Source: Microcoleus sp.
GTDB lineage: Bacteria > Cyanobacteriota > Cyanobacteriia > Cyanobacteriales > Microcoleaceae
NCBI GenBank assembly: GCA_042408215.1
Contig: JAYFMW010000001.1
Coordinates: 59,627-123,626 of the forward strand
Length of the DNA: 64,000 nt
Reading direction: 5' to 3'
The notes beneath the pieces were generated by a model. It was not told the origin of the DNA. It was given only the letters and a program-made list of their open reading frames with translations, and did no database searches. Each line of letters begins with the position of its first letter. Position 1 is the first letter of the stretch. The translations under genes were made by a program, and so were the position numbers. This document shows positions 14,681 through 54,840 of this stretch, piece after piece.

Positions 14681-16060
14681 GTGGTAACGCTCTCTAATTC
14701 CTATGTAAGCGGTCGCGACCAAGAGTCCTCCGGGTTCGCTTGGTGGTCTGGTAACGCTCGTTTGATCAACCTTTCCGGCAAACTGCTGGGCGCCCACGTC
14801 GCTCACGCTGGCTTGATCGTTTTCTGGGCCGGAGCAATGACTTTGTTTGAAGTCGCTCACTTTATTCCAGAAAAGCCCATGTACGAACAAGGCTTAATCT
14901 TGATGCCCCACGTCGCTACCTTGGGTTGGGGCGTCGGCCCTGGCGGTGAAGTCACGGATATCTTCCCCTTCTTCGTAGTTGGCGTTCTCCACTTGATTTC
15001 ATCTGCTGTTCTCGGTTTGGGCGGCATTTATCACGCCGTTCGCGGCCCGGAAGTCCTCGAAGAATACTCTTCTTTCTTCGGCTACGACTGGAAAGACAAG
15101 AACCAGATGACCAACATCATCGGCTATCACCTGATTTTATTGGGTGGCGGTTGCTTGCTGCTGGTTGCTAAGGCCATGTTCTTCGGCGGTGTCTATGACA
15201 CCTGGGCTCCGGGCGGCGGCGACGTGCGTATTATCACGAACCCAACTCTCAACCCCGCTGTGATTTTTGGCTACTTGGTTCGCTCTCCTTTCGGTGGCGA
15301 AGGCTGGGTAGTTAGCGTCAACAACATGGAAGACATCATCGGCGGTCACATCTGGCTGGGCCTGATTTGTATCGGTGGCGGTGTTTGGCACATTTTGACC
15401 AAGCCTTTCGGCTGGGCTCGTCGCGCCTTAATCTGGTCTGGCGAAGCTTACCTGTCTTACAGCTTGGGCGCTTTGTCCCTCATGGGCTTCATCGCTTGCT
15501 GCTTTGTCTGGTTCAACAACACTGCTTACCCTAGCGAATTCTATGGCCCGACGGGCCCGGAAGCTTCTCAAGCGCAAGCTTTGACCTTCTTGATCCGCGA
15601 CCAACGCTTGGGTGCTAACGTCGGTTCTGCACAAGGCCCGACCGGTCTGGGTAAATATCTGATGCGCTCTCCTACTGGCGAAATCATTTTCGGCGGTGAA
15701 ACGATGCGTTTCTGGGATTTCCAAGGCCCTTGGTTGGAACCTTTGCGTGGTACTAACGGTTTGGATTTGAACAAAATCAAGAATGATATTCAGCCTTGGC
15801 AAGCTCGCCGCGCGGCTGAGTATATGACTCACGCTCCTTTGGGTTCTTTGAACTCTGTGGGCGGTTTGGCGACTGAAGTGAACGCATTTAACTTCACTTC
15901 TCCTCGTTCTTGGTTGTCCTGTTTCCACTTTGTGATGGGTTTCTTCTTCTTGGTCGGCCACTTGTGGCACGCGGGTCGCGCTCGCGCTGCTGTCGCTGGC
16001 TTTGAGAAGGGTATCAATCGTGAGACGGAAGCGGTACTTTCTATGCCTAACTTAGACTAA
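14681..16060 (+). CDS. psbC: Photosystem II CP43 protein
   Basis: GTG start with GGAGG upstream; [18 protein letters not shown]... Confidence 0.99.
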
Positions 16061-31363: not shown

Positions 31364-31824
31364 GTCAGCACCCCGCACTCTCTGTAACGGCTTCATGCCT
31401 AAAACTTCAGTTAGTTGACCAGCTATCGTCTTAACTGACTACGTTTTTTGAGTCACGACACCGGGAGAATGCGTAGCTAGTTCCTCGCTCTGTCGTCAGT
31501 GGTTAAACAGTTTTACTCTTAGGTAAGACAGTGCTGCTGACCTAACAAGCTCATTAAACATTGACCGACAAGCTAACATTACCCCGAAAGGGAGGCTCTA
31601 AAAAAGAGCAAACCATTATGCGTACAGGGTGAAAGGTTTGAAGCAGTAATTGTCCTGTTGAAAGTTCATTACAAAAGAACCCCGAACTAAGTAATTCCAA
31701 GGCGGTAAATGTGTAAATATTCAAGGCGGTTTCAACCGCTAGTGTGATGCCCTTCCTCGTAGTCGAAGGGTCGTTTCCCTCTCAGGTCTAAAGACGCTGA
31801 GTTTCCCACTTACCGAGGATTTTT
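31364..31824 (+). ncRNA. HEARO / IscB-type omegaRNA element lacking iscB
   Basis: GTCAG start; TTGACCAGC..CTACGTT..GTCACGACACC..ATGCGTAGCTAGT..CTCTGTC..TAAACAG..ACAGTG..AACATTG..GCTAACATTACCCC; 3' hairpin CTCAGGTCTAAAGACGCTGAG; followed by ATGA. Confidence 0.8.
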
Positions 31825-31926
31825 ATGACTCTTAGCGGAATAATAACTTATTTCGGGCTGTTCGGCGGAATGCTGGGCGTGGCGACAGTGTTGATGTTTG
31901 GTCTGCGGGCTGTCAAACTCATCTAA
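31825..31926 (+). CDS. petL: Cytochrome b6f subunit PetL
   Basis: Manual translation MTLSGIITYFGLFGGMLGVATVLMFGLRAVKLI* (33 aa, single TM, GLRAVKLI tail); divergent from aroB. Confidence 0.88.
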   Translation: MTLSGIITYFGLFGGMLGVATVLMFGLRAVKLI

Positions 31927-41946: not shown

Positions 41947-42263
41947 GGGGCTGTGGCTCAGATGGATAGAGCAAGCGCCTCCTGAAGAATCGGGCACCTT
42001 GGCGGGAAACTCCAGGAGTGAATGTGGTCAAATTCGGTGAAACCTAAAGAGTTAATAGGTTCCTATGACTCTAAGGCAATACCAAGCCAAGCCTGAATTC
42101 ATGGCGATTATGCGATCGCCTACACTTGGAATCAGGAAGGTCTAGAGACTAGACGGCCACCACCTAAAGGCTGCAAGCCCACGGTGAAGGTATAGTCCAG
42201 AGAGTGGGGAAACTCACACAAATCTGAAGCGCTAGGTCGCCGGTTCGAATCCGGCCAGTCCCG
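41947..42263 (+). tRNA. tRNA-Arg(CCU) interrupted by a group I intron
   Basis: Exon 1 41947-41983 GGGGCTGTGGCTCAGATGGATAGAGCAAGCGCCTCCT; exon 2 42227-42263 AAGCGCTAGGTCGCCGGTTCGAATCCGGCCAGTCCCG; cloverleaf closes after splicing. Confidence 0.92.
41984..42226 (+). ncRNA. Group I self-splicing intron, 243 nt, no ORF
   Basis: Upstream exon ends in U and intron ends in G; core elements AAATTCGGTGAAAC (P), AATACCAAGCCAAG (Q), TAGAGACTAGA (R), AAGGTATAGTCC (S). Confidence 0.9.
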
Positions 42264-51166: not shown

Positions 51167-52501
51167 ATGCTGGATTTATTTAGTTCGGGAATCATGTCTC
51201 TGTGGCTGGAGATGGCTGGGGTACGCAGTGTGGGGCTGAATGCTGCGTCAGTTCTGGCTTGGGAAGGAGGAATGCCCGGGTTGGTGTTGGCGGTCGATTT
51301 AGCTGTGGGGGGAGTGCCCTTGGCTAATCCAGATTTGCCCGCAGCAGCGACGGTGCGAGAATTTTTAACAGATTTGAAGGCGAAGGGGCTGATTGAGGGG
51401 AATCAGGGAGTTTGGATGCAGTCGGGAATGGTGCCGCTGGTAAGTCAGCAGGGGACAACGCTGATGCCGGGGGCTTCCCTGACTAAGATTGCGACTTCTT
51501 TGGCGTCCCTGGAAACTTGGGGCGCAGATTATCAGTTTGAAACGCGGTTCCGGGGGACCGGACCGATCGCCCAGGGTGTGTTGCAGGGGGATTTGGTGGT
51601 CAGTGGCGGGGGTGATCCGCTGTTTGTGTGGGAGGAGGCGATCGCCGTTGGTAATGCTCTCAACCAAATGGGTATTAATCGGGTGGCAGGAAATTTAATT
51701 GTGACTGGCAATTTCCGCATCAATTATCAGTCCGAGCCTGTGGCTGCGGGGGAGATGTTGCGGCAGGCCCTCGATGGTCGCAGTTGGCCACCGGATGTGC
51801 AGGCAATTTATTCTAAGATGGCTCCGGGAACTAGAAAGCCGCAGGTGGCGGTGGATGGCGGCGTGATTGCTCGGAAATTTTTACCTGCTTCCCGTTTGTT
51901 GCTGAAGCGTCGATCGCTCCCTTTAGCGGAAATTCTCAAGCAGATGAACGTCCACAGCGATAATGAAATTGCTCAGATGCTGGCCGACAATTTGGGCGGG
52001 GCTAAAATAGTGCAGCAGCAAGCGACTTGGGCGGCGGGTGTGCCGGCGGCGGAACTTCAATTAGTGAATGGTTCGGGATTGGGAGTCGAAAATCGGATGT
52101 CTCCGAGGGCGGCTTGTGGGATGATGCAGGCGATCGGGCGCTACCTTCAGACTACTCCACTGACGATTGCTGACTTATTTCCGGTGTCTGGGCGCGATCT
52201 AGGCACTGTCGAATACCGACACATTCCCCCCTACGCTGTGGTGAAAACAGGCACCTTGGACAGCGTGATTGCCTTGGCTGGAGCGATACCGACGCGCGAT
52301 CGGGGTTTAGTTTGGTTTGCAATTATCAATCGCGGCACGGATTGGGACTCTTTGAGAGCGCAGCAAGATTTGTTTTTGCAAAAGTTGGTGCAGCAGTGGG
52401 GAACCGCACCAACGTTGCCTCTGGCAATGGAGCCCCACATTGACGGCGCGAAACCCGCCTTGGGGGCGGCAAATCGTAGCGATATTTTATTGGGAGGCTG
52501 A
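51167..52501 (+). CDS. dacB: D-Ala-D-Ala carboxypeptidase/endopeptidase (peptidase S13, PBP4)
   Basis: ASLTK (SxxK), SDN, NGSGL, KTGTL. Confidence 0.9.
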   Translation: MLDLFSSGIMSLWLEMAGVRSVGLNAASVLAWEGGMPGLVLAVDLAVGGVPLANPDLPAAATVREFLTDLKAKGLIEGNQGVWMQSGMVPLVSQQGTTLMPGASLTKIATSLASLETWGADYQFETRFRGTGPIAQGVLQGDLVVSGGGDPLFVWEEAIAVGNALNQMGINRVAGNLIVTGNFRINYQSEPVAAGEMLRQALDGRSWPPDVQAIYSKMAPGTRKPQVAVDGGVIARKFLPASRLLLKRRSLPLAEILKQMNVHSDNEIAQMLADNLGGAKIVQQQATWAAGVPAAELQLVNGSGLGVENRMSPRAACGMMQAIGRYLQTTPLTIADLFPVSGRDLGTVEYRHIPPYAVVKTGTLDSVIALAGAIPTRDRGLVWFAIINRGTDWDSLRAQQDLFLQKLVQQWGTAPTLPLAMEPHIDGAKPALGAANRSDILLGG

Positions 52502-52674
52502 GGGAAGAAGTCCTTAGTCCGTAGTCATTAGTCCTTAGGTAGTAGGCAGATTAATGCCCCATTCCCAATTCCCGATGCCCCATTCCCAATTCCCGATGCC
52601 CAATTCCCACAGCATAATCTGAGATTTCGCGCCTGTTGTATGTCACAATTGGGACAGGACTATTGTGCAAGAAG

Positions 52675-53105
52675 GTCAGTAACTCATGTCTAAAGACGCT
52701 GAGCTTGTAAGAGTAATCGAAGCAAGCTGTACTGACCAGCCTCAGACTTTCGAGGTCTACGTTTTTTGAGTCACGACACCTTGGGATGCGTAGCTAGTCC
52801 CCTGCTCTGTCATCTGTAATTAAACAGTTCTAAAGTCACTGGAACAGTGTTGCAGGTCTAACAAGCTCTTAAAACATTGGCGAAGCTAACATTACCCCAT
52901 ACATGGGAGGCTCGTCGATCGAGCAAACCATTACGCGATCGCGGGTTGTGAAATTTGAAATGGTAATTGTCCCATTGAAAGTGCATTACAAAAGCACACC
53001 GAATTGAACAATCCCCCTGTAATGGACAGGGGGATTTCAATCCCCCTTGTCGTTTCCCACGAGCGGGCCGGGGCCGCTGAGTTTCCCACTTACCGAGTTT
53101 TTCTG
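52675..53105 (+). ncRNA. HEARO / IscB-type omegaRNA element lacking iscB (copy 2)
   Basis: GTCAGTAACTCATGTCTAAAGACGCTGAG 5' hairpin; same scaffold motifs as 31364..31824; shared end GCTGAGTTTCCCACTTACCGAG; followed by ATGA. Confidence 0.85.
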
Positions 53106-53393
53106 ATGATCAAACTGCGATTGAAACGATACGGCAAAAAACGCGAGGCCAGCTACCGCATTGTAGCGATGAACAGTTCCACCCGCCGCGATGGCCGTCC
53201 TCTAGAAGAGCTCGGCTTTTACAACCCCAGAAATAACGAAACGAGGCTGGATGTTCCAGCGATTGTCAAGCGCCTGCAACAAGGTGCTCAGCCAACAGAC
53301 ACTGTGCGTGACATCCTTAGAAAAGCCAATGTATTTGAACAAGTCGGAGCCGGAGCCAACCTTGAATCCAGCAACTCAGCAACAGTCGCCTAG
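53106..53393 (+). CDS. rpsP: 30S ribosomal protein S16
   Basis: [34 protein letters not shown]. Confidence 0.97.
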
Positions 53394-53829
53394 CCCCAAC
53401 TACGCAGGACTGGTGCAGTTTTTAATTGGGCCTTTTTTAGAGTCGCCCGCGTCTTTGCGGGTTGATTGTGAATTGCACCCGCGACAGTCGCGGGTCTGGG
53501 TTCGGCTCGCTTTTGACGATCCGGACAAAGGACGGGTGTACGGTAGGGGTGGACGCAATATTCAGGCAATTAGAACTACCCTCGAAGCGGTGGCGCAGAC
53601 TGCTGGTCAGTCCCTCTACTTAGACATCTATGATGGCGAAGCAGGTGAGATGCGCTCACCCGCACCCAGGGGCGATCGCCCCGATCGTGGTACGCGCGAT
53701 CGAGGCGACTTCCGACCCCGAACTTCCGCACCCCCACCCACGACCTTAGCTAGCAGACCTCCGAGAGAGCAACCTCGCCGTACTAACACACCAACGTTTA
53801 GAACCAGTAGAAATACTCCCGGCTATTAA
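53329..53829 (+). CDS. KH domain RNA-binding protein (KhpA-like)
   Basis: [17 protein letters not shown]; rpsP-KH-phoH synteny. Confidence 0.88.
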
Positions 53830-54339: not shown

Positions 54340-54840
54340 TTGACATCCTCCCCGCGCTCTCTGCGACGGGGATTCCTAAGCCTTACAACTTAGGTTTCTG
54401 TTTCATAGCAGAAGCCTTAATAGCAATTTAATGGGTCGTTGCATAGATCTCGATCCCCCTCGCATCCCCCTAAATAAGGGAGTAGGGTGTGAGTAGGGGT
54501 TGACGAAAGAGCAGAATCTTGTTCCCCCCTGATTAAGGGGGGTTAGGGGGGATCAGATTCTATGCAGCCTCATAAAAAACTGGTATAACAGATTTACTCT
54601 GTTCTGTTTTTCGTACCATGCTTGAGTTCTGATCTGGAGAGCTTTGTTGTAAACTAATCTTACACAGCCCAATGTGCGTCGCAATAGCGACTCTTGTTCG
54701 GGTGTTGGGTAAAATCGGTAACGGTGGGCTTTTTCCATCTTCACATTCTCGGTTGCTAATTGTGAAACTGTCAATCCCATATAAAGCCGTCCTTCTAGGA
54801 CGGGGTTTCAACCCTGGGCTTCGCTCCGCCCATTTTTCTG
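54340..54840 (-). mobile_element. Deleted IS200/IS605 tnpB element (LE, 5' tnpB fragment, inserted palindromic repeat, RE)
   Basis: TCAT|CAGAAAAATGGG..AAACCCCGTCCTAGAAGGACGG LE; MEKAHRYRFYPTPEQ..GCVRLVYN fragment from 54738; RE GGAATCCCCGTCGC..GCGGGGAGGATGTCAA. Confidence 0.85.

Follow-up and report, generated by a model that had tools for sequence, protein, structure and literature searches.

In a 64,000-nucleotide (nt) stretch of the Microcoleus sp. genome (NCBI GenBank assembly GCA_042408215.1, contig JAYFMW010000001.1, positions 59,627 to 123,626 of the forward strand; hereafter the window, whose numbering is used throughout), the ribosomal protein S16 gene rpsP is preceded by dacB, a D-Ala-D-Ala carboxypeptidase gene, and followed by a KH-domain gene, a TnpB fragment on the opposite strand, and phoH. 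Here, we show that an RNA element of 431 nt directly adjoins the rpsP start codon, extending from GTCAG at 52675 to the terminus GCTGAGTTTCCCACTTACCGAGTTTTTCTG at 53105, with ATGATC following from 53106 (Table 1). Its first part, 52675-52895, matches the Rfam family RF02033 (HEARO, the omega-RNA of IscB, a nuclease ancestral to Cas9) with 150.1 bits (gathering score 83, E 1.5e-31, model positions 1-211 of 211). A recognisable protein is missing. The two small minus-strand open reading frames (ORFs) had no Pfam match at E<=0.1, no IscB ORF with RRXRR and HNH domains lies within 52675-53105, and rpsP is the direct neighbor. An earlier note, made from these letters without database searches, had described an IscB-less HEARO element of about 430 nt abutting rpsP, and this description holds. 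rpsP is a single-copy gene, with one S16 match in the whole genome, and the note's view that some 430 nt are tolerated in the leader of a normally essential gene is thus borne out.

Table 1. Features of the rpsP element and its surroundings, and RNA-library contigs spanning the element-rpsP junction (window positions)
Feature	Position	Strand	Basis or remark
Second candidate -10 box, CATAAT	52613-52618	+	Predicted from sequence
Candidate -10 box, CACAAT, preceded by TGT (extended -10-like)	52644-52649	+	Predicted from sequence; stretch conserved in congeners with a longer spacer
Displaced native rpsP leader, forming the 5' flank of the element; predicted guide part of the omega-RNA	52655-52674	+	TGCAAGAAG directly before ATG in congeners
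HEARO/IscB omega-RNA scaffold	52675-52895	+	RF02033
First scaffold hairpin CTCATGTCTAAAGACGCTGAG, also subterminal hairpin of the transposon end	52683-52703	+	Ends compared across 44 copies
Hairpin CCCA-UACA-UGGG, then GGGAGG, then hairpin GGCUCGUCGAUCGAGC with a stem variable between copies	52896-52942	+	Alignments of 17 own copies and 50 multi-genome copies
Covarying RNA domain in the iscB slot; closing helix 52943-52949/53008-53014 around two hairpins	52943-53014	+	RNAalifold
Copy-specific G+C-rich hairpins ATCCCCCTGTAATGGACAGGGGGAT and terminator-like AGGGGGATTTCAATCCCCCT with T-rich tail	53011-53047	+	Terminator-like site 53028-53047
Other transposon end: subterminal hairpin CGAGCGGGCCGGGGCCGCTGAG, then TTTCCCACTTACCGAG and U-rich tail TTTTTCTG	53060-53105	+	End motif common to 29 subfamily A copies
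ATGA: transposon target site and predicted IscB target-adjacent motif; its ATG is the rpsP start	53106-53109	+	
rpsP, ribosomal protein S16, 95 amino acids (aa)	53106-53393	+	Pfam PF00886, E 1e-19
KH-domain (KhpA-like) gene, in the same transcribed stretch as rpsP	53251-53829	+	Pfam PF13083; real start probably downstream of the listed ATG
X14 contig over the junction	52818-53350		
X15 contig over the junction	52734-53566		No differences
X16 contig over the junction	52842-53793		
X18 contig over the junction	52713 to beyond 53450		
X19 contig over the junction	52968-53523		

The HEARO scaffold of the element has the sixth-best score among the 70 in the genome. Over 211 nt it shares 85% identity with the scaffold found in an intact IscB copy; homology between these two elements ends at position 224 and returns only in the last 30 nt. 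No intron or other RNA family besides HEARO was found by Rfam at E<=1 over 52500-53300, which sets the element apart from self-splicing introns and IStrons. Imperfect subterminal hairpins as in ISC elements of the IS200/IS605 superfamily are found near both ends (CTCATGTCTAAAGACGCTGAG and CGAGCGGGCCGGGGCCGCTGAG), and with its transposon ends kept and a protein-coding gene absent, the element has the make-up of a PATE, a protein-less IS200/IS605 derivative. The GGGAGG downstream of the scaffold is likely what remains of the ribosome-binding site of iscB, whose ATG is located about 240 nt from the element start in intact copies. At the position of the G+C-rich hairpins at 53011-53047, sister copies carry a GGCGGTTnAAACCGCC hairpin. 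Single-sequence folding, carried out on the element and on its 3' end joined to the rpsP start, yielded Z-scores of -3.9 for the whole and -0.9 for the 3' part, and start-codon access was not clear from the folds.

Comparison with related genomes provides evidence of insertion at this site. We queried 30 relatives with 51700-53450; the dacB end and rpsP were hit separately. The element-free site that the earlier note had predicted, CAGGACTATTGTGCAAGAAG followed by ATGATCAAA, is found almost to the letter in all 10 congener loci holding rpsP, where GACTATT, then G or C, and TGCAAGAAG continue directly into ATGATCAAACTGCG. CAAGAAG is thereby joined to ATGATC in all ten, without target duplication. 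Among 18 congeners, the site is empty by sequence in 10, including one (G005) with 98.6% identical rpsP, and 4 have a HEARO-free dacB-rpsP spacer. In another (G006) the element is missing as judged by coordinates only, two are undecidable, and a single 98% identical relative (G008) carries the element, with its HEARO part cut by a contig end. Presence in the genome studied (G000) and in G008, together with absence in 15 of 18 congeners, is evidence of mobility, and since ten congeners show the empty site while a 98%-identical relative carries the element, the insertion at rpsP is recent. The locus conservation expected of a cis-regulatory ribosomal-protein leader was not found, the element being present in 1 of the 16 decidable congeners. 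One HEARO-free spacer (G004; L053, C31:27900-30000) is instead occupied by an IS607-like mobile element, about 1.9 kb long, which contains a serine recombinase ORF of the IS607 type alongside TnpB-like fragments. The dacB-rpsP spacer appears to be a repeated landing place for mobile elements.

The rpsP element belongs to a large family in its own genome. Of the 70 HEARO matches, 64 are above the cut-off, and degenerate copies reach down to 33 bits. A 3' end was assigned for 55, and as one of these, on contig C6, is positioned in tandem upstream of an already counted copy, 54 were tallied. Subfamily A comprises 25 short and 4 long copies, both ending in GAGTTTCCCACTTACCGA[GA] and a T-rich tail; 13 short copies ending in GGACGGGGTTTCAAACCCATTTTTCTG form subfamily B, and 2 short copies ending in CCGTGAGGTTTTT form subfamily C. 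Subfamily D consists of full-length copies ending in GGGGGAAGACAG (11 tried, 10 assigned). ATGA directly follows all 44 subfamily A-C elements and all 10 subfamily D copies (54 of 54), in agreement with a 4-bp target used without duplication. The hairpins near both ends are related within elements and change jointly between subfamilies A and B, as observed across the 44 copies. A second HEARO element of subfamily A in the window, 461 nt at 31364-31824 (HEARO match 31364-31582), ends on the ATG of petL at 31825.

Proteins that could serve these elements in trans are encoded in the same genome. The long subfamily A copies encode a 423-aa IscB with RRXRR and HNH domains (two full ORFs were checked), and the genome has 31 matches to the IscB N-terminal RRXRR domain, about 16 of them uninterrupted, as well as 20 matches to Y1 TnpA (PF01797), at least 13 of which are intact. 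HEARO scores of ORF-less copies are as high as those of IscB-encoding ones. An IS605-like element at C20:689446-692100, with a 132-aa TnpA and an interrupted TnpB, carries the subfamily A terminus CCCACTTACGGAGTTTTTTT followed by ATGA; its tnpA and tnpB both point toward this shared terminus, which does not match the published layout. Furthermore, elements of about 100 nt at C28:259541-259570 and C5:672436-672491 possess both hairpins and the subfamily A terminus and lack the HEARO scaffold. The former ends on ATGA and the latter ends in TTTTTTTATAATT with no adjoining ATGA. They are candidate minimal PATEs of the HEARO subfamily A family.

In the slot where full-length copies carry iscB, the rpsP element contains RNA of a different kind. 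A conserved stretch of about 120 nt (52896-53014) extends beyond the Rfam model and includes a covarying core of about 72 nt (52943-53014). An extra domain had been recognized before and put at 54 nt; the domain is confirmed and its length has to be revised. It is common to the ORF-less copies of subfamilies A and B and absent from the full-length copies of this genome. In an RNAalifold analysis of 50 aligned copies, 12 of 18 pairs showed compensatory changes. Paired cells amounted to 94.2%, compared with 86.0% in shuffles, none of 500 of which reached the observed value, and with 30-45% when the partner was slid. Doubly changed yet paired cells numbered 103 versus 28 in shuffles, which indicates selection on the RNA of the extra domain. 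At one pair, A-C was permitted by the search pattern, yet none of the 50 sequences shows it. A degenerate 23-nt pattern derived from the domain was found at at least 118 places in public cyanobacterial genomes, including Microcoleus, Tychonema, Dolichospermum, Anabaena, Nostoc, Scytonema, and Calothrix. Of 20 pattern loci sampled, 15 are immediately preceded by a HEARO match, and in the 30 public loci read by eye an IscB ORF never follows.

Most members of the family share with the rpsP element a position on the start of a gene. For 36 of the 44 subfamily A-C elements, the flanking ATG opens an ORF of 30 aa or more; 33 of these ORFs reach 50 aa or more, with no more than 46 open codons upstream. 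Pfam matches were obtained for 32 of the 36 (one below the Pfam cut-off), with the profile starting within the first 26 residues in 24. Besides rpsP, the genes hit include rplS, an EF-G-like gene, petL, petM, chlB, psb27, ftrV, cemA, cbiC, and speA. With subfamily D included (6 of 10 on its own), 42 of 54 elements are located on ORF starts. By comparison, 11.2% of 49,951 genomic ATGA sites meet the 50-aa ORF criterion, and in a crude gene set start-like sites make up 5.7% of ATGA sites overall and 17.7% once coding interiors are set aside (P = 3.6e-20 for 36 of 44). The earlier note had asked for a genome-wide tally against ATGA frequency, and the outcome that it named as refuting did not occur, with 36 of 44 on ORF starts versus at most 18% expected. 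For 7 of the 12 off-start copies, a co-oriented long ORF ends within about 330 nt upstream by a crude count.

The same association was seen beyond this genome. In six congeners, copies were chosen whose match to the query 51700-53450 reached the 3' end of the element; all 13 such subfamily A-type copies have a T-rich end followed by ATGA, and 11 are on ORF starts, including prfC, lysS, and rpmJ. Among 80 public loci, 50 have a T-rich end next to ATGA and 36 of these 50 are on ORFs; Pfam matches, mostly N-terminal, were found for 29 of 35 start-codon ORFs submitted, including psbA-type genes, psaJ, HU, fabI, and upp. A HEARO mini-element occupies the start codon of the EF-G-like GTPase gene (MKDLTRYRNIGIFAHVDAGK) here (C9:13236-14585), in two congeners, and in one Chroococcales genome (L063, L064, L089), which reflects either one old insertion held in common or repeated insertion at a single site. 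Next to two public Limnofasciculus copies (L095, L149), GTGA takes the place of ATGA (CGTTTTT(T)(C)G/GTGA; the slash marks the junction), suggesting that the target may also be GTGA.

RNA-library contigs from five studies (X14, X15, X16, X18, and X19) bridge 53105/53106 and link the element to rpsP. This supports the read-through proposed in the earlier note. The 5' junction 52674/52675 is bridged in X14 by a contig covering 52577-52847. dacB served as a control: contig depth there was 3-7 in X14 and zero in the remaining RNA runs, versus 9-828 over the element and rpsP, whereas the two DNA runs were flat. In X14, depth climbs from 7 to 828 at about 52577-52580, and depth does not rise inside the element. 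Neither the X14 contig start at 52577 nor uncovered run parts were used as evidence for a transcript start. Tandem CCCCATTCCCAATTCCCGATG copies at 52544-52615, just upstream of the rpsP leader, have very high summed contig depth in all runs; therefore, the genome contains this stretch more than once, and contigs break at it.

Downstream, RNA contigs extend from rpsP through the KH gene to about 53990, and X14 depth drops from 65-198 to about 5 after 54089, which places phoH outside the rpsP transcription unit. Thus, of the formerly assumed rpsP-KH-phoH operon, the KH gene remains and phoH does not. A TnpB N-terminal fragment (HTH_OrfB_IS605, E 1e-21; 54553-54780, minus strand) lies between the KH gene and phoH, and RNA depth falls before it. 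Contig depth of the HEARO part exceeded that of rpsP 3- to 18-fold in X16 and X19. Contig depth is a poor measure, and this gives a weak hint that a shorter RNA from the HEARO part accumulates; processing, also considered in the earlier note, has no more than this hint in its favor. An RNA joint from 52674 to 53106, as left by element removal, was found in none of 8 runs, which is no evidence of absence because contigs drop rare forms.

Read-through raises the question of how ribosomes initiate at rpsP behind a foreign end. For the last 18 nt of the element, pairing with the tail of the 16S rRNA amounts to -2.5 kcal/mol; the 36 start-codon copies, with subfamilies A, B, and C pooled, average -1.7 at their ends, which is no better than random 18-mers (-2.3) and weaker than native flanks (-3.3). 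The end of the rpsP element's subfamily carries no Shine-Dalgarno motif, a replacement motif was rejected for the rpsP copy, and initiation at rpsP probably proceeds from the U-rich element tail without such a motif. Other ends are different: GAGG-like, Shine-Dalgarno-like sequences precede ATGA in subfamily C (GTGAGGTTTTT, -6.9 kcal/mol), in subfamily D (GGGGGAAGACAG), and in Nostocales-type ends (CGAGGTCTT). In subfamily D, for example, C17:708317-709903 ends in CCAAGGGGGAAGACAG with GGGGGA 8 nt before the flanking ATG; the petL copy, of subfamily A, has a weak Shine-Dalgarno-like GAGGA in its tail CCGAGGATTTTT (-5.9 kcal/mol). An in-frame upstream TTG at 53004, which would add 34 residues to S16, was taken as chance, because the frame is open only in the rpsP copy with its 8-nt tail and closed in sisters with 7-nt tails. 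The tail CTG/ATGA forms a tandem TGATGA in another frame, whose sole upstream ORF has 19 codons from a TTG.

Taken together, we interpret the rpsP element as a protein-less, non-autonomous IscB-type transposon (ISC, IS200/IS605) that inserted recently and precisely and is likely co-transcribed from the rpsP promoter, an interpretation to which we assign a probability of about 0.72, inferred steps included. Transcription from the rpsP promoter would yield a read-through RNA in which the displaced rpsP leader serves as guide ahead of the scaffold, and this RNA would be used by IscB from full-length copies; the guide carried by the focal omega-RNA is predicted to be GACTATTGTGCAAGAAG. IscB and guide would then cut the element-free site, where the guide match is followed by ATGA, and would spare the occupied site, where it is followed by GTCA. 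Repair of the cut site, templated by a sister chromosome, would put the element back; movement would be performed by TnpA in trans, and rpsP would be translated from the read-through RNA. The bias toward start codons would have three joint causes, namely, the fixed ATGA target, the need for sense transcription from outside, and the disappearance of copies that land within genes. Leaders seldom contain upstream ATGs, which makes the start codon the principal ATGA in sense-transcribed non-coding DNA. Sister copies likely sit on start codons because the host promoter there makes their guide RNA.

Several points weigh against this interpretation. IscB binding of the focal RNA and cleavage of the empty site are predictions. 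The RNA evidence consists of assembled contigs, which inform on bridging only, carry neither strand nor start nor end, and may include carried-over DNA. A strict sigma-70 scan returned no promoter-like site in 52400-53200, and the terminator-like hairpin at 53028-53047 lies inside the element. Present mobility of the rpsP copy is uncertain, because its two subterminal hairpins differ from each other. Regarding the start-codon bias, calls were based on ORFs and Pfam rather than annotation, 15 HEARO matches with ends undefined by the motifs used were left out, and 8 of 44 short copies, like 4 of the 10 full-length copies in subfamily D, lie off ORF starts. Furthermore, at least one sister copy, at a tail-sheath gene on C30, has an in-frame ATG 4 codons upstream of the insertion.

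The start-codon data cannot tell retention of favorably placed copies from targeted insertion, in which TnpA would be drawn to places where translation or transcription begins and the DNA is single-stranded or otherwise marked, or would recognize a target motif longer than ATGA. The bias of about 80%, compared with our rough estimate of 50-60% for any sense-transcribed non-coding ATGA, and the polymorphic, recent state of the insertions, which leaves little time for sorting, speak for targeting. However, no conserved bases beyond ATGA were found downstream or in the 5' flanks of the 44 copies, 12 of 54 copies lie off start codons, and published ISC targets comprise only 4 bp (PMC4810608), so we judge targeting unlikely. 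Still less do we favor the view that the element is a dead, tolerated remnant whose RNA serves neither element nor host. The missing nuclease gene, the 3' hairpin unlike the 5' hairpin, and the degeneracy of some sister copies, down to 33 bits, would fit such a relic, but the high rank of the scaffold, the equal scores of ORF-less and IscB-encoding copies, the excess of doubly changed paired cells in the extra domain (103 versus 28), and presence or absence at 98% identity, a sign of recent movement, make it quite improbable.

Alternatively, hit genes might survive because the element supplies its own ribosome-binding site or promoter. The Shine-Dalgarno-like motifs in subfamily C, subfamily D, and Nostocales-type ends are compatible with such a self-sufficient cassette; nevertheless, the pairing of the rpsP element end at -2.5 kcal/mol and the mean of the 36 copies, no better than random and weaker than that of native flanks, speak against it, as do the lack of a promoter-like site inside the element and of a rise in RNA depth within it, and we regard it as having about one chance in ten. 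Domestication, which the earlier note had left open, would mean that the host uses the structured RNA to control rpsP, for instance as sensor or attenuator. The position in the leader of an essential gene of an autoregulated class, the terminator-like hairpin, and the greater depth of the HEARO part than of rpsP in X16 and X19 would be in line with this. Yet 15 of 18 congeners lack the element here, the one with 98.6% identical rpsP among them, the element's family counts more than 40 copies with intact ends, its own transposon ends are kept, and the same element type precedes dozens of unrelated genes; we therefore consider domestication very remote.

HEARO/omega-RNA, ISC elements with an N/ATGA target, and omega-RNA-bearing PATEs are already known. 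According to Kapitonov, Makarova and Koonin (2016, PMC4810608), cyanobacterial ISC elements use the target N/ATGA and are moved in trans by Y1 transposases. Like ISC1-1_MA of Microcystis aeruginosa described there, the rpsP element begins with 5'-GT(CA), is inserted upstream of ATGA without duplication, has subterminal hairpins, and is non-autonomous, presumably depending on Y1 TnpA in trans, and sharing its terminus with IS605-type elements of its own genome; unlike ISC1-1_MA, which encodes IscB, it has the covarying RNA domain in that slot. "Start codon" does not occur in PMC4810608. According to a preprint (Meers 2023, 10.1101/2023.03.14.532601), the IscB guide lies outside the transposon end, so that the omega-RNA depends on outside transcription, IscB elements tend to co-orient with the upstream gene, and protein-less PATEs encode omega-RNAs for use in trans. 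The rpsP element resembles these PATEs in having kept its ends, lost a protein gene, and encoded an omega-RNA for a nuclease encoded elsewhere. In contrast to them, for which action by TnpB in trans is described and which are related to Geobacillus ISGst1 and ISGst5, it is of the IscB type and has many copies, mostly on start codons. The preprint also notes in general terms that RF02033 misses downstream elements, and NTGA-type motifs are read by IsrB relatives (PMC9581776). With respect to HEARO RNA as modeled in RF02033, the rpsP element shares a full-length match well over the gathering score and differs by the absence of an adjacent HNH/IscB ORF and by the extra conserved 3' domain outside the model. 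IStrons are fusions of a group I intron with an IS200/IS605-type or IS607-type element that splice out of RNA. They likewise belong to the same transposon superfamily and survive in or near genes since the host gene stays expressed; unlike them, the rpsP element showed no RNA joint across 52675-53105 and no Rfam intron.

Neither the association with start codons, including those of essential single-copy genes, nor the covarying domain in the nuclease slot, in a lineage spanning several cyanobacterial orders, was reported in the HEARO, IscB, and IS605 literature that we searched; for the start codons, the original HEARO description lay outside this search. That description, by Weinberg et al. 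in 2009, reportedly remarks on insertion beside ATGA or GTGA and may have priority for the start-codon link. A 2026 OMEGA review (PMC13565253) contains neither "ATG" nor "non-autonomous," and HEARO is not mentioned by Weinberg 2010 (PMC2864571).

It is tempting to speculate that the rpsP copy exemplifies widespread cyanobacterial mini-transposons consisting of omega-RNA only, with iscB replaced by the covarying RNA domain, that sit on start codons of well-expressed genes, such as those for ribosomal proteins, photosystem and cytochrome b6f subunits, and elongation factors. The host promoter and short leader would make the guide RNA, the element end would replace the leader, and the whole would act as an RNA-guided gene drive in polyploids. 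We hold this wider proposal tentatively, with somewhat less than even confidence. If true, each insertion would spread to all chromosome copies in polyploid cyanobacteria at little cost to the host. Since IscB guide RNAs start outside the transposon, the source of their natural transcription is in question, and copies placed in the 5' leaders of active genes, precisely on the start codon, offer a testable answer. An essential single-copy gene running with 431 nt of folded foreign RNA between leader and ATG bears on translation start in cyanobacteria, and the nuclease slot has been refilled with a conserved RNA domain. Natural pairs of guide and target with a known ATGA motif would moreover be ready substrates for the biochemistry of compact nucleases.

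Elsewhere in the window, Rfam identified two further RNAs: IsrR, the antisense RNA of isiA, with 161 bits at 15089-15275 on the minus strand, and a group I intron with 57.5 bits at 41971-42219 on the plus strand.

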